From a virus, in the IMG/VR virus record IMGVR_UViG_3300012662_000001, positions 32,001 through 96,000 of that record: a DNA stretch of 64,000 nucleotides; one strand, written 5' to 3'. The stretch's first letter is position 1. The number at the start of each line of letters is the position of its first letter. This document shows positions 706 through 32,309 of this stretch, piece after piece. The notes under the pieces are model-generated. The model was not told where the DNA came from. It did not search any database and saw nothing but the letters and a program-made list of their open reading frames with translations. The translations under genes and the position numbers were made by a program.

Positions 706-1242
706 ATGAACTTCTATGAAGCGGCAATACAGGCGGTCTGCACCGCCTATGAGATAACGCCCGAGACGCTGAAAGGCGAATGTCGGGATGAACGAATAGT
801 GGAAGCGAGAAAGTGGTACTGTCTGCTGACCTCTCCACGACCTCTGGTGCAGTCCGGACGTCACATAAATCGTGATCACGCCACCGTACTGCATCATCGC
901 AGGGAGATGCGTGACACTCTGGGGCTTTATTCCATCTACAGAGAGCGATGGCTTGTTATGAAGAAGCTCTTTGACAGAATATTGATGGAGGGGCGACTGA
1001 ATGAGTGTTCTGTGGGTGTGGTTGAATATAGGAGTCAGTGGAAGTCCTATCGGGATCTGCTGTCAGCCGCCGAGAGAGCGCGACGTAAACTGGAGGAGAT
1101 GTCCACGTCCGTCGCAGGTGAGCCGTGCGTGGTGTGTGAGAACGGTGACGGTGAGTTCCACGTGATAAGGGTTAAGAACAGACTTGCCGAGCCGCTGCAT
1201 CTGGAGTGTATGCTGAACATTATAAAAGAAAGAAACAAGTAA
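706..1242 (+). CDS. DnaA domain IV-like helix-turn-helix DNA-binding protein with a Cys-containing C-terminal region
   Basis: N-terminus IQAVCTAYEITPETLKGECRDERIVEARKWYCLL...SGRHINRDHATVLHHRREM follows the DnaA C-terminal domain pattern (R..R....AR....Y......s...IG..fg.RDHtTVlha). C-terminus has CVVCENG...LEC. Confidence 0.6.
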   Translation: MNFYEAAIQAVCTAYEITPETLKGECRDERIVEARKWYCLLTSPRPLVQSGRHINRDHATVLHHRREMRDTLGLYSIYRERWLVMKKLFDRILMEGRLNECSVGVVEYRSQWKSYRDLLSAAERARRKLEEMSTSVAGEPCVVCENGDGEFHVIRVKNRLAEPLHLECMLNIIKERNK

Positions 1243-6528: not shown

Positions 6529-6633
6529 TTTATCTACTTCCAAAACGATACATATAACATACAGAATTATGAATCCTATATGCTATATGGCGTGATTTCA
6601 AATGTAATTAGGATGCCCCGATTTGGGTGGTTT

Positions 6634-7503
6634 TTATGCTTTCTTTTCATACTTAGCTCGCTCACGCTCAATGATTTCATCTAAAGATGGTTCCTCCTCT
6701 TCAACAGGCGGCTCACTTTCACATTCCTCCATAGAAGCGACACCATCTTCAGGATTCAGTACGGATCCATTATCAGTCACTGTAAATCGTATGGCAGTAA
6801 TGGGATCAAGACCTTTCCATTCGGCCTTGGACTTTATCTTTTCAAAGGTGAATTGAAGTCTGGTTCCGACTTCTTCAAATTCTCTGGCAGCCATTTCAAG
6901 ATACTTGTTCACGAATGCCCACGAATCAAGACTATCACTCGCTCCAACCCATTTCCTGATGTCCTCTATTCTGGCAGTCCAGGTCTCTCTCTTCATATTG
7001 CTGGATATGTAGAGATATGTCATCATAGCCTGTGGACGTGTAAGACGAAGAAATGACTGCACACAGAAGGACACGTATCCTACTTTCTTGGTGAAGTTCA
7101 ACAGCCAGCACAGACTTCGCGGAACGATTCCAACACCATACTGACCATTTGGATAGGTAATGATGTCATAGAATAGAGGGTAGGTGTGAAGAGCACCATT
7201 CTCATCCACTTCATCTATGATGTCCACTTTTTTCATTTTTAGAAGTGTTGCCTTGATACTATGTTTACCTGAAATAACATACTTCGCTGGAATAGGAATT
7301 TCCAGTTCCGCCTTGTCATTCAGTGGAAAATACTTCTGCAATGTTGCTCTGTCAGCTTTTTCCCAGTCAATGTCCTCCGTCTTGGGAATATACTCCTGAA
7401 GAGCTTCTACCACTACCGCCCAACATCTTTTCTGTCGGGCATACTCATAACGAGCCACACTTATTGCGGCCTGTTTTGTCGTTCTTACTACTTGTTTCTT
7501 CAT
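6634..7503 (-). CDS. putative iteron-binding replication initiator (Rep paralog 1)
   Basis: The track ORF starts at TTG 7530; I prefer the ATG at 7503 (MKKQVVRTTKQAAISVARYEYARQKRCWAVVVEALQEYIP...). It is a clear paralog of 19212..20003 along its whole length. Tandem 21-bp repeats and a TAATTTTG -7 box lie directly upstream. Confidence 0.6.
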   Translation of the reverse strand: MKKQVVRTTKQAAISVARYEYARQKRCWAVVVEALQEYIPKTEDIDWEKADRATLQKYFPLNDKAELEIPIPAKYVISGKHSIKATLLKMKKVDIIDEVDENGALHTYPLFYDIITYPNGQYGVGIVPRSLCWLLNFTKKVGYVSFCVQSFLRLTRPQAMMTYLYISSNMKRETWTARIEDIRKWVGASDSLDSWAFVNKYLEMAAREFEEVGTRLQFTFEKIKSKAEWKGLDPITAIRFTVTDNGSVLNPEDGVASMEECESEPPVEEEEPSLDEIIERERAKYEKKA

Positions 7504-7554
7504 AATGTATAGAAATTTGTTTACACGCAAAAGTAATCACTACATAGTAAATTT

Positions 7555-7562
7555 CAAAATTA
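7555..7562 (-). promoter_or_regulatory. -7 box of the Rep1 promoter
   Basis: The minus strand reads TAATTTTG about 50 nt upstream of the ATG at 7503 and next to the iterons. Confidence 0.5.
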
Positions 7563-7591
7563 GAATTCGTACATTAAAATCTCCATCTTAA

Positions 7592-7634
7592 ATGTAATAC
7601 ACCTCGTTTCTGTATGTAATACACCTCGTTTCTG
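7592..7634. repeat. iterons: 2 tandem copies of atgtaatacacctcgtttctg
   Basis: Identical 21-mers at 7592-7612 and 7614-7634 with a 22-bp period. Related aaatgtaa motifs occur at about 6600, 2250 and 2326. Confidence 0.8.
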
Positions 7635-7787
7635 AAGTAATTAAGATTTGTGAAATCCCGACTACATCGGGAGGGGGTCGGGAAAATTCGGGACTTTCCA
7701 GGGTCTTAAATAGTAGGAAATAGTATAAGAAAAAGAGAAATAGGGCTCCTGTCGGAGCTTCTATCTTTTAGAGAATCTCATACGAAA

Positions 7788-17283: not shown

Positions 17284-17856
17284 TTAGTCCTTTAATGCAG
17301 TGTCCTGATTTATCTCCCCGATACCGAACTCCTTATAGTCTCGACCAATGAAGACGATGTAGATTCTTGAAGCATAAGGCTTGTCCCAGAACTGATAATT
17401 GTATCTAAATGTATGCTGATGTTCTGTAAGATACATAATCTCTTCTCGAGGATTGCCATCACTATGATAGTTATAGACTTCACATTCCTTTTCCAGTATC
17501 TTACAGTATTCCTCTATTGCCTGTTGTCTGTTGGAACTTACACCGTCTTCCTTGAATAAAGGGAGTGTCTTTATCATTCGAGTGTCACTCCAGATAATAT
17601 TCTTGCTGTTGGCCGCAAGCATAACTTCCCCAATGGATCTCAATCCAGCATCACTGCATCTACCAAAGTTGATATAGACCTGATTATAGCCGACTACTTC
17701 ATAGGAAACATTTCCCTTGCGAAGCTCTGAAAGCAGAACTGTGAGATTACCACCGACGTGCATTTCCTCGATGGAGAAGAAATCAGCGGCATAGACTGAA
17801 ATCGAAAGACAAAATGCTGCAATGACAGCAGCGATAATTGTAATAAATCTTTTCAT
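17284..17856 (-). CDS. secreted hypothetical protein
   Basis: Signal peptide MKRFITIIAAVIAAFCLSISVYA|AD. Confidence 0.6.
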   Translation of the reverse strand: MKRFITIIAAVIAAFCLSISVYAADFFSIEEMHVGGNLTVLLSELRKGNVSYEVVGYNQVYINFGRCSDAGLRSIGEVMLAANSKNIIWSDTRMIKTLPLFKEDGVSSNRQQAIEEYCKILEKECEVYNYHSDGNPREEIMYLTEHQHTFRYNYQFWDKPYASRIYIVFIGRDYKEFGIGEINQDTALKD

Positions 17857-17869
17857 AATACGAAATTGT

Positions 17870-18823
17870 CTATAGTTGTGAAAATATGTGTTTCAGTAGA
17901 ATGCCAACGAAGTTCACGTCCCAGCCGTTGCCAGCTCTGTTCCAGAGTTGATTGGGTGTCAGTCCGGCATAGTCAAGTTCACCGTCTCTAAACCCCATAA
18001 ATCTGAATCGTTCATCAGCGGACATACGTCTGACAATTTCTCTTCCGTCACGTGGCGGCTCAACCACATAGAAAACGTTGTGTTCCTCCAGTATGGTTCC
18101 AGAGAGACCGTCCGTGCGAACCTTGCGATTGTAGAGGTCGAGATTGGCGGCTTCAGTGACCTGAAGCTGATTGCCGAGCCTGTACTTCTCTTTGATGTAC
18201 TGTATACGCTTATCACTAAGATACAGTGATGGGTCTGGGTGCTCGTCAAGAAGATCCTTGAAGCGCAGACTAGAAGGACACTTCGATGGAACAATACTGA
18301 ACCCCTCCGGAAGACCTCCAAGCCGTGCGAATATCCAGACACGTTCCCTGTTCTGCGGTATGCCGTAGTCCTTGCTGTTCATAAGGCCGTAGGCGATATC
18401 ACCATAGCCAAGCTCCTTGAATGCGTCTTTGATAAGGTTAAATGTCTCTTCAAACTTCCTGGATAGGAAGCCCTTGACATTCTCCAGAAGAACATACTTC
18501 GGCTTCTTAACGGAGCACACATAGATGATGTCAGCGAAAAGTGTGCCACGACCATAGCGGTCTCTTTCTCCTTCCTGATCACCTATGAGGCTGAACGGCT
18601 GACACGGAAAGCCGCCTGTGAACAGGTCAAAGTCAGGCAGCTCCTCTGGATTCAACTTGGTGATGTCACCGTAGTTCCTGATGTCAGGGAAGTTAGCGGC
18701 CAAAAGTTTGTTGGCATCCTTGTTGATGTCGGACTGACCCACTACCTTAAACGGTATTCCGGAGCGTCTTAGACCGAATGACGCTCCACCGTATCCTGCG
18801 AATGTTTCAAATACTCGTAGCAT
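17870..18823 (-). CDS. dcm: DNA (cytosine-5)-methyltransferase
   Basis: Motif I FETFAGYGG, motif IV GGFPCQPFS, motif VI LLENVKG, motif VIII QNRERVWIF, motif X GNGWDV. Confidence 0.92.
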   Translation of the reverse strand: MLRVFETFAGYGGASFGLRRSGIPFKVVGQSDINKDANKLLAANFPDIRNYGDITKLNPEELPDFDLFTGGFPCQPFSLIGDQEGERDRYGRGTLFADIIYVCSVKKPKYVLLENVKGFLSRKFEETFNLIKDAFKELGYGDIAYGLMNSKDYGIPQNRERVWIFARLGGLPEGFSIVPSKCPSSLRFKDLLDEHPDPSLYLSDKRIQYIKEKYRLGNQLQVTEAANLDLYNRKVRTDGLSGTILEEHNVFYVVEPPRDGREIVRRMSADERFRFMGFRDGELDYAGLTPNQLWNRAGNGWDVNFVGILLKHIFSQL

Positions 18824-18825
18824 AA

Positions 18826-19098
18826 TTATCTGTAGTTTTGGATTTTCTCGAAAAAGACATTAATGGCTTCCAGAATGGCCTGAAGATCCAGACCGCTGAA
18901 CTCTGACGGCTCATATTCATTACCCCAGATGTCGGCCACGTTGATCCAACCGTTCCCCTTGCGAATCACTGACTTAATCTGTGCGAAGTCACCGTTAACA
19001 GTTGCACAGTCAAGTGGGTGTGAAAAGAAAAGTTCCGTGTTAAGAGGAAGAGTGGACTTGATGAATGACTTAAAGTCAGAAACTGAAAAACGTGCCAT
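18826..19098 (-). CDS. hypothetical protein
   Basis: The track ORF starts at TTG 19125; the first ATG is 19098 (MARFSVSDFKSF...). It is the first gene after the minus-strand promoter cassette. Confidence 0.55.
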   Translation of the reverse strand: MARFSVSDFKSFIKSTLPLNTELFFSHPLDCATVNGDFAQIKSVIRKGNGWINVADIWGNEYEPSEFSGLDLQAILEAINVFFEKIQNYR

Positions 19099-19153
19099 AA
19101 TGCAAAGCAAAATAAAAACCAACAAACAAAGGCAACCAACCTGATTGCAAGTG

Positions 19154-19186
19154 CAAAGGTAGTCATCTTTCTTGGAAATCCAAGGA
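19154..19186 (-). promoter_or_regulatory. phage promoter cassette driving the minus-strand island
   Basis: The minus strand reads tccttggatttccaagaaagatgacTACCTTTG. It matches the plus-strand cassette at 8234-8266 at 29 of 33 positions. Confidence 0.6.
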
Positions 19187-19211
19187 TTTTATCAAGAATT
19201 TTCTAAAAAAT

Positions 19212-20003
19212 CTATTCGTCCAAAGATGGGTTTTTATTACTCATACAGCCGTTATCTGTAACCTTAAATCTTATGCCAATAACACGAGCCCTTTTCTTGG
19301 CAATCACCTTTTTAAGAATATATTCATACTCGAATGTAAGCCTACATCCTCTATCATCAATCTCCTTTTTACATTCCTTAATATAGTCCGTAACAAAGCG
19401 ATTAGTGTCTATCTGTTCTGGACAGTCCAGCCGCTTGCGAAGTTCCTGCAAGTCCGCATCCCAAACTCCAGCACCATATTTAGGATGCTTGCGGTTAAGG
19501 TTTTCTGACAAATAAAGGTACAAATTCATAGATGTAGGCCGTTGAAGAGCCATAAAAGATTGAACACAAAAAGAAGCATAACCTGTTTTCTTGGAAAAGT
19601 CCAACAACCATCTAAGAGAACGTGGTGGAATTCCCACCCAATATCTTCCATCCTTATTTAGAAGAGTGTAGAATAGAGGAAATGTAGCCTTTCTACCTTG
19701 TTCATCCACTTCATCTATGACGTTAATCTGCGTCATCTTTTCAAGTAGAGATCTTACACTGCCATTATGAGACATTACATATTTAGGTTCGATCTCTACT
19801 TCAAATTCAGAAAGGCTGTTTAGTGGAAAAATTTGTTTTAACCTTTCTGTGTCAAGAGTTTTCCAGTCCACTTCTTCATTTCCTGGAATAAATTCCTGCA
19901 AGGCTTCCACTACAACAGCCCAACAGCGTTTCTGTCGAGCAGAACTGTATTTTGTCACATCTCTTGTTGCACGTTTCGTTGTGCGTAAAATTCTTTTGCT
20001 CAT
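19212..20003 (-). CDS. putative iteron-binding replication initiator (Rep paralog 2)
   Basis: The ATG at 20003 (MSKRILRTTKRATRDVTKYSSARQKRCWAVVVEALQEFIP...) aligns with the Rep1 N-terminus. Shared blocks include IDEVDE.G....PLFY, PRSL.WLL.F.KK.GY.SFCVQSF and IRF.VTDNG. The -7 box TATATTTG (minus strand, 20024-20031) and four tandem repeats lie upstream. Confidence 0.6.
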   Translation of the reverse strand: MSKRILRTTKRATRDVTKYSSARQKRCWAVVVEALQEFIPGNEEVDWKTLDTERLKQIFPLNSLSEFEVEIEPKYVMSHNGSVRSLLEKMTQINVIDEVDEQGRKATFPLFYTLLNKDGRYWVGIPPRSLRWLLDFSKKTGYASFCVQSFMALQRPTSMNLYLYLSENLNRKHPKYGAGVWDADLQELRKRLDCPEQIDTNRFVTDYIKECKKEIDDRGCRLTFEYEYILKKVIAKKRARVIGIRFKVTDNGCMSNKNPSLDE

Positions 20004-20066
20004 TTCGTTTGTAATTTGATGCACAAATATACAAATTATTTTCATAAACTATAATCCGTTCGTCTG

Positions 20067-20152
20067 TGGGGGGTTTTACACCTCTATTTGGGGGGTTTTA
20101 CACCTCTATTTGGGGGGTTTTACACCTCTATTTGGGGGGTTTTACATTTCTG
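20067..20152. repeat. iterons: 3 exact copies and 1 diverged copy of tggggggttttacacctctatt (22 bp)
   Basis: Copies at 20067-20088, 20089-20110 and 20111-20132, with a diverged copy at 20133-20152. They are contiguous with no spacers. The ACACCTC core is shared with the Rep1 iterons. Confidence 0.85.
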
Positions 20153-20221
20153 TAAAATTCTGTAAATGAAATAGTTATCGGGAAAAGAGGCCTCCTGTAA
20201 TAGTAGGGGTAATAGATATTG

Positions 20222-20293
20222 GGTAATAGTATGATTGTTTATTGATAGTATTACTCCTAAAGTCGTAATACATATCACAATCATACTATTACC
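20222..20293. repeat. 16-bp perfect inverted repeat flanking an A/T-rich spacer
   Basis: ggtaatagtatgattg (20222-20237) pairs with caatcatactattacc (20278-20293). Neighbouring taatagta repeats resemble aaatagtaggaaatagta near the Rep1 iterons (about 7711-7730). Confidence 0.75.
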
Positions 20294-20614
20294 TGAAATA
20301 GAAGGGAAATTAAGAAAAGGGAACCGAAACGTCACATCTGAAAATGGAGGGGCTTCGAAAGGGGACTCCTCCCTTACGGTCGGAGGTCTTGTCTTCCCCT
20401 TTCTACGCCCAGGAGAGGGTCGACAGAGCGACCCTGTTTCCTTATAGGAGAATCCTGTATGAAATGCCGTTATACAAACAGTCGTGTCAAGGCCGCAAAG
20501 AATTCAACATTCTTCCCTTCACACGCTTGAGAACGGATAGCATAGATGGGCAGTGCAGTTCCCTATGAAAGTCGTTTATGGAGCAGACATAAAAAGACAC
20601 ATAGCGAAAAGACG

Positions 20615-20640
20615 GTTGGTTCGATTCCACCTCCGTGGCC
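20615..20640 (+). other. tRNA 3'-half-like fragment (T-arm plus acceptor strand), not a complete tRNA
   Basis: gttgg TTCGATT ccacc tccgtgg cc has a canonical GGTTCGATTCC T-loop with one stem mismatch. No complementary 5' acceptor strand (ccacgga) is found within 100 nt upstream, and there is no CCA. Confidence 0.45.
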
Positions 20641-21059: not shown

Positions 21060-22622
21060 ATGGCAGAAAAGAAATTGGTTCCAGTCGAGAGGTTCAGGGA
21101 GGTTGCCCTGAACAACGGCTATGAAGTGTTTGATGAGACACAGGTGGCGGACTATGCCAAGGACGCTATGATGAAGTCTCAGGCAGGTGTTCTTTCAAAG
21201 GAGGACAAGGATGAGTTCGCCGTGGAGATGGCGGGACTTATGAAGGCTATCTGTGCGAATGGGGACGGCAGTCAGTGCACTCTCTACTATCGCAAGCCGC
21301 TTGTTGACTGGAAAGTTGACGGCAACGGTGTCGTGATGAAGGGGATCGCAGGAACGTACACTGACACCCCTGAGAACAGAAAGTTGAATCGTGTGGGTCA
21401 GGCTTATGTTCCAAGTTCTGATGTTATTAAGTCTATCTATGGTGCTGGAAAGGAGGACATCGAGGAGAATAAGGTTGATGCTGAGATGGCAGAACAGGCC
21501 TCTTTCATTAGAAAGTCCTGTGCCGTTGTGGCCGCTGATGCGGAGAGAAGACTTGCCCTTGGTGAGATTGATGAAAAGCTCTGCAAGTCAGTGAAGACCG
21601 AGGTTGGTATGTATCTGACTTCGTGGGGTGACACGCTTGATGAGTGCTGCGACGTTGTGAAGTCTGAGGACTTGGCTGACGTGCGTGAGGACTTGGCTGA
21701 CGCCAAGGCGGCATTTGTTGACATTGTCAAGGCCGCTCACGGTCGCTATGCTGACACCGCCAAGAATAGAAGACTGCATCGTGTTGGTCAGGAGTACGGC
21801 AAGGCGGCTCAGGAGAAGGACAAAGATGAGAAGAAGCAGGGTGCGACTGATGGTGTATCAGGTGGGAAGCCGTCTCGCAATGGTGATTCCGTGAAACGTG
21901 ATCTTTCCATTCTTGAGGAGAACAAGGATAGGATTGTTGAGAAGTACGGCCAGGAAGCCTATGATAGGAAAGTTGAAACCCTAAAGAAGGAGGGTGATGA
22001 CTACGAGCAGAAGGAGACCGTGAAGCAACTCAAGGAGCGTGCTGACAAGCAGGACGCTGAGGAGGAGGAACGCAAAAAGGCTGATAAGAGAGCCAAGCGT
22101 CAGGAGAAGCGCAGAGCACGTCACGCAGCCAAGCGTGAGGCCGCTAAAAAGGCCAAGGAGGAAGTCGAAGTCAAGGCAAAGGCTGAAGTGGAGAAACAGC
22201 ATCCTGAGGAGAAAGAACAACCTGAAAAGAATGCGAATAGCATTGAGTTGACTTCTAAGGGCATTAAGGACTATGTTGACAAGAATAGCAGTACCCCTGA
22301 TGCTCGTATGCAAGCGATGGCCGCAGCCTATAAGGCACTCAAGGATAGTGGCAAGAGTAAGAAAGTTGACACGTTTGTTAAGGAGGTGTCAACTGGAAGT
22401 CCAAAAGTTGATATGGTTACACGGAAGTATGTGGAAGCTACTATGGCTGGAGCCACACACGAGGAAGCCAAGGCGTTTGCTGAAAAGGAGTTCAACTTAC
22501 TTGAGCACGGTATTCAGATGGCTCAGACTGCCATAGAGGACAATCTTCCTCAAGGTATGGCACAGCATTTGATGAAGACAGCCTATGCCGTCTTTGATAA
22601 GGCGAAGTTTACAAAGAAGTAG
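21060..22622 (+). CDS. Lys/Glu-rich protein carrying two copies of a G.Y.D...NR.L.RVGQ.Y motif; function unknown
   Basis: The track ORF starts at GTG 20982; I prefer the ATG at 21060 (MAEKKLVPVERF...). Motifs are GTYTDTPENRKLNRVGQAYVP and GRYADTAKNRRLHRVGQEYGK. A long KE-rich tract is present (KKADKRAKRQEKRRARHAAKREAAKKAKEE). The C-terminal module is shared with the next gene. Confidence 0.65.
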   Translation: MAEKKLVPVERFREVALNNGYEVFDETQVADYAKDAMMKSQAGVLSKEDKDEFAVEMAGLMKAICANGDGSQCTLYYRKPLVDWKVDGNGVVMKGIAGTYTDTPENRKLNRVGQAYVPSSDVIKSIYGAGKEDIEENKVDAEMAEQASFIRKSCAVVAADAERRLALGEIDEKLCKSVKTEVGMYLTSWGDTLDECCDVVKSEDLADVREDLADAKAAFVDIVKAAHGRYADTAKNRRLHRVGQEYGKAAQEKDKDEKKQGATDGVSGGKPSRNGDSVKRDLSILEENKDRIVEKYGQEAYDRKVETLKKEGDDYEQKETVKQLKERADKQDAEEEERKKADKRAKRQEKRRARHAAKREAAKKAKEEVEVKAKAEVEKQHPEEKEQPEKNANSIELTSKGIKDYVDKNSSTPDARMQAMAAAYKALKDSGKSKKVDTFVKEVSTGSPKVDMVTRKYVEATMAGATHEEAKAFAEKEFNLLEHGIQMAQTAIEDNLPQGMAQHLMKTAYAVFDKAKFTKK

Positions 22623-25071: not shown

Positions 25072-26790
25072 ATGTCAAGAAGACAGCGAAATAGAAGTCA
25101 TCGTATGGGAGCTGAATCAACGGCTCCCATAGATGCTTTAGAGGGGATGTCCATTCAGGAGTTGAGCCTGATGTCACAGGCCGCTCCGCTTGCTCTTCAG
25201 AATCGGCTGGAAAAGGCTCTTCGTTCAGAGAACGTTGAGGACGTGCTAAAGGCACAGGCGTTCATCGCACAGCAGGAGAAGAGCGGCAGAGCTGTCAAGC
25301 CTGACATCAAGTCCATCCTATGGAATCCATCTGACATAGGGTTCAATGGTCGTGGCTATCGTGATCCGAACAATGGCATACCGTTCACCACACTTCAGCG
25401 GATGGGTGATATCTATATTATTAAGGCCATCATTAACACTCGTATTGAACAGATACAGAATTTCTTGCGATATAGTGATGATGATCAGAAGCCTGGATTC
25501 CAGCTGCGATACAAGCAGATGCTCGGCGGTGACATTAAAGAGATATCCAAGAAGGATATGAAAGTTGTTGAGGGGCTTGTGCGCTTTTTGGAGGATGGTG
25601 GTGAGAATGATAAGTGGTCTTCGGAGGACAATTTTCAGGATTTTACACGTAAGACCATCAAGGATTCACTCTGTCTGGATCAACTCTGCTTTGAGGTTGT
25701 TCGCAGTCGGAGTATGAAAGTGAATAAGTTCAGAGCGGTGGATGCCTCTTTGATACGGCAACTTGACACGGATGATCCTCGCTATGCAAGTATGTTTGAA
25801 TCATATAGGTGGCACGGTTATCTTCCTCGCTATGCGATGGTCTATGACAGTCAGATAATACGTAATCCAGCAACTGATGAGCTTGTTGTCTACTATCCGT
25901 GGGAACTTGGTTACGGCATACGTAATAAGACGACCAATGTGTTTAGGAATGGCTATGGCTGTTCTGAACTGGAGACCCTTATAGAGGTCGTGACGTGGAT
26001 TCTGTGGGGTATGCAGTATAACGGTAATTTCTTTAAGCAGGGTTCACAGCCAAAGGGATTCATTAATGTCAAGAATTCCAATATTGACCAAGGCACGCTG
26101 AATGAGTTTCGTCAGGACTGGAAACAGACGATGTCCACTGTTTATAATGCTCACAAGATTCCTGTAATACAGGGTATTGATCTTGAGTGGGTAGACTTGC
26201 AGCAGTCCAACAAGGATATGGAGTTCACGGAGTGGATTAAGTTCCTTTTCGTGGTGACGTGCGCTGTGTATCGTATTGACCCATCAGAGTTGGGTTTTCA
26301 GTTTCAGGATGCAGCAAGGGTGTTCGGACAGGACGGTCAGAAGGAGCGTCTTGACCATTCACAGAAGAAAGGTCTCTTTCCTCTACTCATTTTCTTTCAG
26401 AACATTGTGAATCGCTATATCATATCTGAGATAGATGACCGTTTTGAATTCGTGTTTACAGGCGTGGACATCAAGGACGAATCTGCTCAGATAGAGATTG
26501 ACAAGAAGAAGTTGGACGCAGGTGTTGTTTCTCTGGAGGATATGTTCCGCAAGTATTCGGGGCGTGACCTTGACCCTGAGAAGGATACCATTCTCAATTC
26601 CATCTATCAGACGGCACAGAGCAACAAGATGATGGGTGGTGAGGATATGAACGGAGCCGTTGATCAGATGAACGGTGAGGGTGGCGGTGACGACTTTGAC
26701 ATTGCTGATATGCTTATGCAGAAGTCACAGGGCAACCCTATTCTTGGCAAGGCACTGGAGTTTATTGATAATCAGTTATCGGCAAAATAA
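25072..26790 (+). CDS. portal protein
   Basis: 572 aa, positioned immediately upstream of a MuF-like gene and the protease-scaffold-capsid block. It has an acidic Gly-rich C-terminus. The call rests on size and synteny, not on a motif. Confidence 0.7.
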   Translation: MSRRQRNRSHRMGAESTAPIDALEGMSIQELSLMSQAAPLALQNRLEKALRSENVEDVLKAQAFIAQQEKSGRAVKPDIKSILWNPSDIGFNGRGYRDPNNGIPFTTLQRMGDIYIIKAIINTRIEQIQNFLRYSDDDQKPGFQLRYKQMLGGDIKEISKKDMKVVEGLVRFLEDGGENDKWSSEDNFQDFTRKTIKDSLCLDQLCFEVVRSRSMKVNKFRAVDASLIRQLDTDDPRYASMFESYRWHGYLPRYAMVYDSQIIRNPATDELVVYYPWELGYGIRNKTTNVFRNGYGCSELETLIEVVTWILWGMQYNGNFFKQGSQPKGFINVKNSNIDQGTLNEFRQDWKQTMSTVYNAHKIPVIQGIDLEWVDLQQSNKDMEFTEWIKFLFVVTCAVYRIDPSELGFQFQDAARVFGQDGQKERLDHSQKKGLFPLLIFFQNIVNRYIISEIDDRFEFVFTGVDIKDESAQIEIDKKKLDAGVVSLEDMFRKYSGRDLDPEKDTILNSIYQTAQSNKMMGGEDMNGAVDQMNGEGGGDDFDIADMLMQKSQGNPILGKALEFIDNQLSAK

Positions 26791-30791: not shown

Positions 30792-32309
30792 ATGGATTTG
30801 TTTAACTACACAGGCAACGAAAATGCCAATTCGCTTGAGTCAATGTCCTCAGAGGAGATTCTCAAGGCGATGGAAGCTGGTCTGCTGACTGGAATGCAGT
30901 ATGACAATCAGCTCAACAACGGTGGCGGTCTGAAACCGGAATCTCTGGACGGAGTTCTCAAGAACCTCGAGAACAGGCTTGATCAGCTTGTTTTCTGGAA
31001 TGAACTCGGAAGACAGAGAATCGAGAACACCGTACATCAGTACAATCAACTCTACAAGTACGGTCAGGAAGTCGGCATCTTCAATGTTGAAGGAGAAACC
31101 CCTACCGAGACCGATTCTATCTACAGACGTAAGTCAGTAGTTGTGAAGTTCACAGGCGTTACTGGACAGGTAACTCATCCGGGAATGATTGTGAAGACCG
31201 TTGTGGGCTCGCTCTACACCAAGGAGGTTGAGAATAAGACAATTTTGCTTCAGACCATTCTTGACAAGAAAGTCATTGATGCTGATTCTAACAAGGTTCC
31301 GGAGGAGTTTGACGGTGTGTTCGCACAGCACGTTGCAGGTATCAATGACATCACAGGTGGTCTTCTCGGTAAGACTTCTGAGCAGGTGCTTGACGCCTAC
31401 TTCGGAGACGTGGCCGTTATTAACGCAAATGGTTCAGTTCTTACTGACGCACTTGTTGAGGATGCCGCACAGGCTGTTGTCAATGACAGAAACGGTATCA
31501 TCGATCGCATTGTTTCCTCTCCAGTCGTATTCAACAACTATGTTAAACTCTTTCACGAATCGAAGCGTGTCATTGTTGGAATGCAGGGTGGCGTCGTAGG
31601 TGCTACTATGGGTCAGTCCGTCAACGATATCACAACTCAGTTCGGTAAGGTTGCTATCAAGGCCGACAAATACTTTGACTGGAACGCTCCAGTGAAACTT
31701 GGTCGCGCCAAGACATCTGACAAGGCTCCAAACGCTCCAGTGAAGGACACTTCCGCAGCCGTATCAGTGGCCGTTGATGCAAAGGGTCAGTTTGGTACAA
31801 TGCACGCTGGAAACTACTTCTATGCAGTGGTGGCTGTTAATAGATATGGTGAATCAGAACTCGTACTTCTTAACGATGATGCACAGGCGGTAGGTGCAAC
31901 ACAGTCTGTGACATTGAAGTTCACAGGTGCTATATCGTCTGCATATCCTGAGACCTGTTATGTTATCTATCGTACCGAAGCCAATCCAGCAGACAAGAAC
32001 GTTGCTGACTTTTATCCTATTTTCAAGGTATCCAAGACCGAGCTTGTAGCAGGTTGGGACGGTGCGGAGGCAGGATCAGTTCACGACCGCAACAGGTGGA
32101 TCGCTGGAACGAAGTCCGCTCTCGTTTACTTCAACGGTTCTGAGATGCTCGAGTATCTTGAGTTGGGTGGCACAATGAAACTTGACTATGCTATTGTCGG
32201 TCCGAGGAGGTCATTTTCCGTGCTGAATTATGGTACTCCAGTGCTCTATCAACCAGGAAAGATCGCTCGTATCATCAATATCGGTAAGATTGGTCTTCCT
32301 ACCCTTTAG
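30792..32309 (+). CDS. major capsid protein
   Basis: 505 aa, located after the protease and scaffold genes and followed by a strong terminator (32334-32365). The call rests on synteny. Confidence 0.7.
   Translation: MDLFNYTGNENANSLESMSSEEILKAMEAGLLTGMQYDNQLNNGGGLKPESLDGVLKNLENRLDQLVFWNELGRQRIENTVHQYNQLYKYGQEVGIFNVEGETPTETDSIYRRKSVVVKFTGVTGQVTHPGMIVKTVVGSLYTKEVENKTILLQTILDKKVIDADSNKVPEEFDGVFAQHVAGINDITGGLLGKTSEQVLDAYFGDVAVINANGSVLTDALVEDAAQAVVNDRNGIIDRIVSSPVVFNNYVKLFHESKRVIVGMQGGVVGATMGQSVNDITTQFGKVAIKADKYFDWNAPVKLGRAKTSDKAPNAPVKDTSAAVSVAVDAKGQFGTMHAGNYFYAVVAVNRYGESELVLLNDDAQAVGATQSVTLKFTGAISSAYPETCYVIYRTEANPADKNVADFYPIFKVSKTELVAGWDGAEAGSVHDRNRWIAGTKSALVYFNGSEMLEYLELGGTMKLDYAIVGPRRSFSVLNYGTPVLYQPGKIARIINIGKIGLPTL

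Follow-up and report, generated by a model that had tools for sequence, protein, structure and literature searches.

Iteron replicons of the Rep_3 class, among them those of mini-F (RepE), R6K (pi), pPS10 (RepA) and Acinetobacter plasmids, use an initiator with two winged-helix (WH) domains and carry, immediately 5′ of the rep gene, an array of three or four direct repeats, each ~22 bp long, together with A/T-rich DNA. In Acinetobacter, usually four iterons are located upstream of rep, hybrid rep genes are known, and the plasmids pD36-4 and pAb825_36 have two rep genes, each with its own iterons (PMC9927589). Two loci of this kind are present in the stretch of phage DNA analysed here (the window), namely the 64,000 nucleotides at positions 32,001 to 96,000 of the IMG/VR virus record IMGVR_UViG_3300012662_000001. 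Positions 19212-20305 (module 2, with the initiator gene rep2) probably represent a complete Rep_3-class iteron replication module in a resident, exchangeable slot, and module 1, with the paralogous gene rep1, would be a second, facultative cassette.

Module 2 resembles the Rep_3 plasmid replicons in the two-winged-helix initiator, the number and length of the upstream repeats and the A/T-rich DNA. By contrast, its carrier is a tailed phage of ~100 kb, the Rep2 sequence is very divergent and has no match in plasmids, and DnaA boxes are absent, while an extra TTTCCCGA box and an AATAG cluster are present. Multi-replicon Rep_3 plasmids, like this phage, have two paralogous initiators on one molecule, each with upstream iterons; IncF plasmids, for example, carry the two Rep_3 initiators RepFIA and RepFIB. 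Here, however, the carrier is a virus, and one module sits in an always-filled slot, whereas the other is a 1.25-kb add-on. Lambdoid phages (lambda, phi80, 82 and P22) exchange type-specific O/ori pairs as modules, with the specificity residing in the DNA-binding domain of O, so that they share with the slot described below the swapping of initiator/iteron pairs between related phages. In lambda the iterons are located inside the O gene, O is not a Rep_3 protein and one origin per genome is the rule, whereas the module 2 repeats are outside the initiator gene, 63 nt 5′ of the rep2 start codon. Phage P1 likewise has two replication modules, one of them iteron-controlled: oriR with RepA and the incC and incA iterons, and oriL with RepL, i.e. 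unrelated initiators for two phases of its life style, as well as a partition system. In the present phage both initiators are paralogues, and no par-like match was obtained among the 29 window proteins scanned, which cover part of the genome. The large phage host, the fixed slot with serial turnover, the optional second cassette and the extra conserved boxes distinguish the locus from known systems in general, and no description of it was found in the literature on iterons or Rep_3 in Bacteroides phages and phage-plasmids.

The following features make up module 2 and its left border:
19121..19207, minus strand: conserved promoter of the genes read leftwards, which bounds the exchangeable slot on its left side
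19212..20003, minus strand: rep2, 263 amino acids (aa), ATG at 20003
20004..20066, minus strand: leader with 73% A+T that separates the rep2 start from the iterons
20067..20154: iteron array, three exact 22-bp units and a diverged copy
20178..20185, minus strand: TTTCCCGA box, found in modules of every specificity
20197..20305: AATAG cluster and inverted repeat, a backbone element

Rep2, for which in-frame alternative starts exist at 20024 (GTG) and 20045 (ATG), can be classified as a divergent member of the RepE/pi/RepA type of Rep_3 initiators, with two WH domains, as judged from a Pfam match to Rep3_C (PF21205, WH2; 24.1 bits, above the cutoff of 21.1), from the match of its predicted fold and from the reach of its sequence profile to canonical Rep_3 proteins. 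It also matches PHROG 4402, annotated as “replication initiation protein.” The AlphaFold2 model, calculated from a 15-sequence family alignment, contains two winged-helix units, with a predicted local distance difference test score (pLDDT) of 84 and a predicted template modeling score (pTM) of 0.85. When this model was compared with the PDB by Foldseek, all 46 matches at E ≤ 0.001 were RepE, pi or Rep-iteron-DUE (DNA unwinding element) entries, comprising RepE54-iteron (1rep), the RepE dimer-operator, Rep-iteron-DUE (8aan, 8ac8) and pi-iteron (2nra) complexes, and the next match was RctB with E 1.3e-3. The alignments with 1rep, 8aan and 2nra are full-length (~260 alignment columns), with E values of 1e-6 to 1e-8 and template modeling (TM) scores of 0.5-0.6. 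A sequence-profile search of the PDB with the Rep2 family gave no match; a profile search of 1.84 billion representative proteins gave 178 matches at E ≤ 1e-3, and the distant tail of these consists of canonical Rep_3 proteins in which Rep3_N and Rep3_C are both above cutoff.

A preliminary description of the locus, made from the letters alone, had proposed a paralogous initiator elsewhere in the same DNA. Indeed, tblastn of Rep2 against the window detects one paralogue, at 6754..7503 on the minus strand (46.3% identity over 257 aa, E 3e-75), and the shared blocks that had been listed, ARQKRCWAVVVEALQE(F/Y)IP, IDEVDE.G....PLFY, PRSL.WLL.F.KK.GY.SFCVQSF and IRF.VTDNG, are all found in the alignment. 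Rep1 scores 17.9 bits for Rep3_C, under the cutoff of 21.1. The ratio of nonsynonymous to synonymous substitution rates (dN/dS) against relatives is 0.02-0.08 for Rep2 (0.024-0.077) and 0.07-0.11 for Rep1, and therefore both genes are maintained by purifying selection.

The repeat unit TGGGGGGTTTTACACCTCTATT occurs exactly at 20067, 20089 and 20111, followed by the diverged copy at 20133-20154, in agreement with the earlier count of three exact repeats and a diverged one. Tandem Repeats Finder (TRF) reports a period of 22 with 3.6 copies (100% matches, score 160), and dinucleotide shuffles yielded no match to the repeat even with three mismatches permitted. Read in the sense of rep, the unit is AAAACCCCCC / AAATAGAGGTGT, and the array comprises four 5′ halves and three 3′ halves. 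A/T-rich DNA adjoins the repeats on both sides, with 63 nt at 73% on one and 109 nt at 71% on the other. The rep2 leader bears a TAtaTTTG box at 20024-20031 on the minus strand, which we take, from the Bacteroides consensus, to be a Bacteroidota-type -7 promoter box; a ..TAnnTTTG.. box precedes the ATG by ~20-25 nt in every related module. A scan for sigma-70 promoters gave six against 5.0 expected, i.e. chance level, the sigma-70 model being wrong for this type of host.

On the far side of the array, the TTTCCCGA box has only three matches in the 64 kb, two of which are at equivalent positions of the two modules and on the same strand (7678-7685 and 20178-20185), and related modules have CCCGA-type boxes at the equivalent position. 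AATAG is present in five copies in 20197-20301 and in three copies in 7709-7743, its background frequency being 0.0026 per nt. An inverted repeat had been described here as perfect and 16 bp long; it is perfect, but its arms measure 17 bp (20222-20238 and 20277-20293, 100% complementary), and they enclose a spacer of 38 nt with 74% A+T. The AATAG/inverted-repeat element is also present in relatives without Rep2, where it reads GGTTATAG, and homology of the window with the loci L018, L096 and L110 restarts at 20206. The proposal that this architecture is repeated in module 1 was correct for the TTTCCCGA box and the AATAG cluster, but not for the long inverted repeat, which is replaced there by a short GC hairpin.

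Module 1 is composed as follows:
6535..7787, minus strand: module 1 cassette, 1253 bp, facultative according to the comparison with relatives
6538-6560, 6590-6612 and 6613-6636: three orphan iterons of other types, from repeat comparison
6634-7503, minus strand: rep1, 289 aa, paralogue of Rep2 (46% identical)
7592-7637: iterons, two complete 22-bp units
7678-7685, minus strand: TTTCCCGA box, from the box scan
7709-7743: three copies of AATAG, from the motif count
7744-7759: GC hairpin that ends the module, in place of the long inverted repeat

The order of elements is thus rep1, A/T-rich leader, 22-mers, TTTCCCGA box, three AATAG copies and GC hairpin. The repeat unit ATGTAATACACCTCGTTTCTG is present in 2.3 copies at 7592-7641 and, as stated in the preliminary description, differs from TGGGGGGTTTTACACCTCTATT while sharing ACACCTC with it. 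The insertion is clean, flanked by a terminator hairpin and the palindrome TATGAAATTTCA. In the relatives 135457 and 144418 (loci L017 and L019) it is replaced by ~20 bp, and it is also absent in 160295 (L020); it is present in 142699 (L018/L015), L010-L013 and L105. Because it is cleanly missing from three relatives, module 1, and not module 2, apparently behaves as the add-on cassette. Like the phage studied here, 142699 has two initiators, a Rep1-like protein and RepX-b (see below), each with its own repeats.

The relationship between initiator and repeats was analysed with 12 non-redundant Rep/iteron pairs, the upstream regions being compared in rep sense. All 12 family members have 22-bp direct repeats upstream, the sequences of which differ. 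The WH2 helix PEQIDTNRF.TDYI.EC is common to Rep2, L014, P0002, P0003, P0005 and P0006, and all six proteins have AAAACCCC in the 5′ half of their repeats, regardless of the N-terminal domain. Conversely, P0005, P0006, P0007, P0013, P0008 and P0011 contain SKGRSxKPTLLKM in WH1, and in six of six cases AATCACGCT is present in the 3′ half, regardless of the C-terminal domain. For the natural chimeras P0013 and P0007, AATCACGCT was predicted in the repeats beforehand and then found. The WH1 shared by P0003 and P0004 accompanies AAATGGGGGT; an earlier assignment, in which the WH1 type of Rep2 and P0004 would read AAATAG, was ruled out by this comparison. Closely related pairs change in the same way: between Rep2 of the window and of L006 (91% identical), 10 of 24 differences are in residues 72-88, the WH1 helix region, and the change in the repeat is confined to the 3′ half, from AAATAGAGGTGT to AAATCGGGGCAT. 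Rep1 and its L012 homologue (85% identical) have 14 of 45 differences in residues 189-204, the WH2 helix, and here the 3′ half AAACGAGGTGT is kept and the 5′ half altered. Between RepX-a and RepX-b (78% identical), the differences cluster in both helices and the repeats are wholly different. Mantel tests gave r = 0.66 (p = 2.5e-4) for WH1 against the 3′ half and r = 0.74 (p = 5e-4) for WH2 against the 5′ half, the p-values being optimistic since the halves were phased by eye and the loci are related, and the crossed pairings were not significant (r = -0.19 and 0.19). Rep2 of L014 and L104 has a synonymous divergence (dS) of 0.61 from that of the window, yet the repeat units are identical.

Because the helices co-vary with the repeat halves across the 12 pairs, the repeats look like cognate iterons, in which WH2 would read the 5′ half and WH1 the 3′ half. 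As had been proposed, one phage genome holds two paralogous pairs of initiator and iterons whose repeat specificities differ. Both pairs are intact, both genes are under purifying selection, and the co-variation makes the pairs look cognate. The WH2 half-sites differ between the modules, AAAACCCCCC in module 2 and ATTACATACAG in module 1, while GAGGTGT is common to the WH1 half-sites of both, so that the two modules should be largely, but perhaps not fully, insulated and partial cross-talk is possible.

The closest relatives comprise four IMG/VR contigs of 98-103 kb and several metagenome contigs. The position of module 2 (slot 2) is bounded by the promoter of the leftward block at 19121-19207, which is 87-93% identical in L095 and L096 and bears the TCTTGGA..N..CTTTGC promoter-like motif of repeat family D1, and by the AATAG/inverted-repeat element from 20206. 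Its occupants are:
Window: Rep2, type c repeats, three exact and one diverged
160295 (L020/L014): Rep2, 97% identical, type c repeats
L006: Rep2, 91% identical, type c′ repeats, in which the 3′ half differs
L104: Rep2, 97% identical, type c repeats
142699 (L018): RepX-b, 267 aa, three type b repeats
144418 (L096): RepX-a, 274 aa, four type a repeats
135457 (L110): a third RepX variant, 258 aa, four repeats of its own type

By hhalign, RepX is distantly homologous to the family (probability 94.6%, E 7e-8), and it matches Rep3_N and Rep3_C weakly. The more distant phage 148533 (L016) encodes a protein 31% identical to Rep2; four 22-mers accompany it, and it has the same neighbours, arranged as a mirror image. 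Pattern scans of 160295, 144418 and 135457 revealed no further initiator of either family. Since every close relative has one initiator with three or four 22-bp repeats at this place, slot 2 appears to be the resident origin slot of the lineage, with interchangeable occupants. The preliminary description would have been refuted had close relatives kept one module with the other clearly decayed; close relatives usually have only one of the two families, but neither copy in the window is decayed. Many contigs of this phage group (L006, L010-L013, L014/L020, L101 and L103) end in or beside iteron arrays, and one 99-kb IMG/VR contig begins within Rep2 repeats; these ends are probably assembly breaks at tandem repeats, a physical genome end being the alternative.

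The slot also bears traces of earlier occupants. In the group of close relatives, the DNA downstream of every rep gene examined, in slot 1 as in slot 2, contains one or two repeats of a foreign type. For slot 2, residents and remnants are distributed as follows:
19213..19245 of the window: orphan iteron of the foreign “b” type, ~1.5 copies, the cognate repeat of RepX in 142699
Window, L020 and L006: resident c or c′ (Rep2), downstream remnant b in 1.5-2 copies
L018: resident b (RepX-b), downstream remnant a in two copies
L096: resident a (RepX-a), downstream remnant c/c′ in two degenerate copies
L110: resident of its own type (third RepX), remnants b in two copies and then a in one copy adjoining the block promoter

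The b-type orphan reads tctattcgtccaaagatgggtttttattactcat in the window, compared with three copies of gatgggtttttattcgtccaag in L018, and two b-type copies are at the equivalent place in L020 and L006. The module 1 orphan at 6613-6636 is a c′-type unit and the sole other AAAACCCCCC-like site in the window. The stacked remnants of L110 are best explained by successive cassette replacements that would each have left part of the previous array. In the window, the remnant at 19213-19245 provides both the final 11 codons of rep2 (MSNKNPSLDE) and the stop; rep2 itself appears to be a 3′-truncated gene fused to an array remnant. An acidic C-terminal tail of the type RWDEWD..EERR..YEKHSA, which 12 of the 15 sequences in the family alignment have, Rep1 among them, is missing from Rep2 because its C-terminus is read from this remnant; P0002 also lacks the tail in the family alignment.

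The DNA of module 2 is 89% identical to 160295 (L020), while the window flanks are only 70-75% identical to 160295 and 82-84% identical to 142699 (L018). Next to rep2 lies a small open reading frame (ORF) that co-occurs with Rep2-type modules, and further left a methyltransferase gene:
18826..19098, minus strand: ORF of 90 aa, no Pfam or PHROG match
17870-18823, minus strand: Dcm-type C5 cytosine methyltransferase, Pfam 192 bits

The only loci with homologues of the 90-aa ORF (44-45% identity) are L006, L014/L020 and L104, all of which bear Rep2, and none of the RepX phages has one, whereas the 190-aa ORF at 17284-17856 (92% identical) accompanies RepX phages. The Dcm gene, located between the promoter region of the leftward block and the 190-aa gene, is absent there in all relatives inspected; L010 has a different methylase fragment, elsewhere. 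Because the 90-aa ORF travels with Rep2 modules, the 190-aa ORF with RepX phages and the Dcm gene is unique to the window, the tract with rep2 and the 90-aa ORF looks imported by recombination from a 160295-like phage into a 142699-like backbone. Judging from these comparisons, the slot-2 cassette is repeatedly replaced, the variants being Rep2, three RepX and one type 31% identical to Rep2.

The preliminary description had also considered that module 2 might be a plasmid replicon captured together with the adjacent accessory island. Rep_3/iteron modules are typical of plasmids (PMC9927589), and a distance of 0.4 kb separates rep2 from the Dcm methylase gene, which no relative shares at this place. 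However, no relative of Rep2 was found in a protein search of PLSDB (72,556 plasmids), in GTDB (one genome per species) or in DNA and protein searches of GenBank phages. The close family of Rep2 consists of 15 clusters among 5.8 billion proteins, and every inspected contig with such a cluster resembles a ~100-kb phage and encodes Cpn60, a sigma-70-like protein, ferritin, HU, and BACON and LPD29 domains. The window itself is phage DNA, with a portal gene at 25072-26790 as well as a UvrD-like helicase and an HU-like protein. Furthermore, slot 2 is occupied in every close relative, the Dcm gene is absent in Rep2-bearing relatives, and most genes of the adjoining minus-strand block are phage backbone shared with relatives without Rep2, only the 90-aa ORF travelling with it. 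Capture from a plasmid is thus very improbable, and arrival together with the island does not agree with these data.

If module 2 is a resident Rep_3-type origin, its operation can be outlined from the family, the repeats and the co-variation. Leftward transcription of rep2 would start from a promoter in the 63-nt A/T-rich leader, and Rep2 monomers would bind the 22-bp direct repeats, which should all be on one face of the DNA because their spacing is exactly two helical turns. WH2, in the C-terminal part, would contact the 5′ half AAAACCCCCC, and WH1, in the N-terminal part, the 3′ half AAATAGAGGTGT. The loaded array would open the flanking A/T-rich DNA and recruit the helicase and replisome of the host; Rep2 binding, DNA opening and helicase loading are all inferred. 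Participation is also probable for the TTTCCCGA box and for the AATAG cluster together with the 17-bp inverted repeat. Modules of all specificities have the box and an AATAG (or TTATAG) cluster, which are probably the site of a shared factor or an unwinding element. A candidate for binding the shared TTTCCCGA or AATAG elements is a small protein encoded at 706-1242 (plus strand) and conserved in relatives, in which Pfam detects a helix-turn-helix resembling DnaA domain IV (Bac_DnaA_C, 39.5 bits).

Several observations weigh against this picture of a complete module in a resident slot. For Rep2, the Pfam match to Rep3_N (PF01051, WH1) is 16.2 bits and thus below the cutoff of 22.4, and the loss of a tail conserved in most of the family could mean that the activity of Rep2 is altered. 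Neither module region (7.5-7.8 kb and 20.0-20.35 kb) contains a TTATCCACA-like DnaA box with up to one mismatch, such boxes being common, but not universal, in iteron-type theta origins, and no inverted-repeat operator was identified. GC skew is uninformative as an origin marker, since its local minimum near 20 kb tracks gene orientation. The pairing of helices with half-sites depends on phasing by eye and on 12 loci that are not phylogenetically independent. That the slot is always filled is a statement about nine loci only, six of them close (L020, L006 and L104; L018, L096 and L110) and three distant, with the same neighbours confirmed for L016 and gene and repeats only read for L106 and L107. 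Finally, the distant ~100-kb relatives L003, L007, L002 and L097 have their Rep at a third position. In these and in L100 this position is between the LPD29 block and the sigma-70 block, and the Rep there comes with a hairpin, a CTATT cluster, a CCCGA box and iterons; at the P0013 locus (L097), many iteron half-sites are scattered over ~600 bp.

As to why there are two modules, a resident and a facultative one that are both functional rank first, followed by transient redundancy, by a split between lytic and maintenance replication and by interference between phages. That the phage is a snapshot of turnover is a possible but tentative alternative. In this case a single module would work, probably module 2, whose array is full, and the other, a recent hitch-hiker, would eventually either disappear or take over, without any division of labour. 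Three relatives get by with one initiator, complete repeats number only two in module 1 compared with three or four elsewhere, signs of serial replacement are abundant, and 142699, likewise with two initiators, combines a Rep1-like protein with another partner in slot 2, RepX. On the other hand, rep1 and rep2 are both under strong purifying selection and the module 1 cassette is retained in L010-L013, L015 and L105. A division of labour, in which one module would serve lytic replication and the other would maintain the phage at low copy number, like a plasmid, in a carrier or pseudolysogenic state, comparable to oriL and oriR of P1, appears unlikely. It would account for two intact modules of different specificity, and iteron/Rep_3 replicons are typical copy-controlled plasmid origins (PMC9927589), but both initiators belong to one family, unlike RepL and RepA of P1, no partition or integrase gene was found by Pfam among the 29 window proteins mentioned above, and module 1 is dispensable in three relatives.

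More improbable still is that the Rep/iteron sets and the foreign orphan repeats serve mainly to titrate or handcuff the initiator of a co-infecting rival rather than as origins. The foreign-type repeats are indeed well preserved downstream of every rep gene examined in the close group, L020 has two perfect b units beside a gene with a dS of 0.6, and the slot 2 types form a cycle in which c carries b, b carries a and a carries c. However, the stacked remnants of L110 fit simple replacement scars, a three-way cycle is expected by chance in 25% of cases, the b orphan is partly constrained by encoding the Rep2 C-terminus, and one or two copies are few for titration. A related idea, which we regard as speculative and only slightly less doubtful, is that origin specificity is under diversifying turnover driven by conflict during co-infection, with the foreign repeats as functional decoys or handcuffing sites that hamper the initiator of a rival or exploit it, in a non-transitive c>b>a>c network; if this were true, the natural domain chimeras would give a readable two-half recognition code for Rep_3 proteins.

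With module 2 as a resident, exchangeable origin, the comparison suggests that related phages trade origin modules like cassettes. Replication origins of uncultured gut-type phages are almost unknown, and that of module 2 would be readable from its sequence. The comparative set constitutes a natural experiment on iteron recognition by Rep_3 proteins, in which helix swaps and chimeras alter one repeat half at a time, and likewise on the exchange of origin specificity, with a fixed slot, serial replacement and an optional second cassette. Incompatibility and competition between co-infecting phages thereby become directly testable. In addition, the compact initiator/origin pairs of ~1.0-1.25 kb look mutually orthogonal and may be of use as tools in the host group, which is probably Bacteroidota.

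Additional elements surround the slot. A promoter-like motif of ~35 nt, TCTTGGAtATTCcAGAAA...cTTTGc, precedes many early genes (2423, 3164, 7822, 8234 and 14522 on the plus strand, ~19135-19185 on the minus strand); its ending in a Bacteroidota-type TTTG box suggests a phage-specific class of early promoters, perhaps with its own sigma factor. To the right of slot 2, a GC-rich nested hairpin followed by a terminator-like stem and a T-run is located at 20340-20445 (plus strand). It is 82-84% conserved in relatives without Rep2, and the four homologues used for a consensus fold of 20355-20445 vary little. It may be either a small RNA or a further element of the backbone, adjoining the origin slot. 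Scans of the window with Rfam and ARAGORN gave nothing at threshold. A tRNA-like element at 20533-20636 (plus strand), with counterparts at ~20172-20272 in L018 and ~4745-4827 in L096, scores 19.6 bits against Rfam tRNA (E 0.32; gathering score 29), has a 42-nt insert in the anticodon region and is not matched by ARAGORN. With introns allowed, ARAGORN places odd tRNA-like genes with “introns” of 10-13 nt at the same place in two relatives, and the acceptor and T arms of the element vary between phages yet stay paired. Further to the right, a 520-aa protein (21060-22622, plus strand) has three copies of the motif G.Y.D...NR.L.RVGQ, the repeats being placed at 21351, 21741 and 22719, and its homologues flank the slot in every relative, the distant L016 among them.

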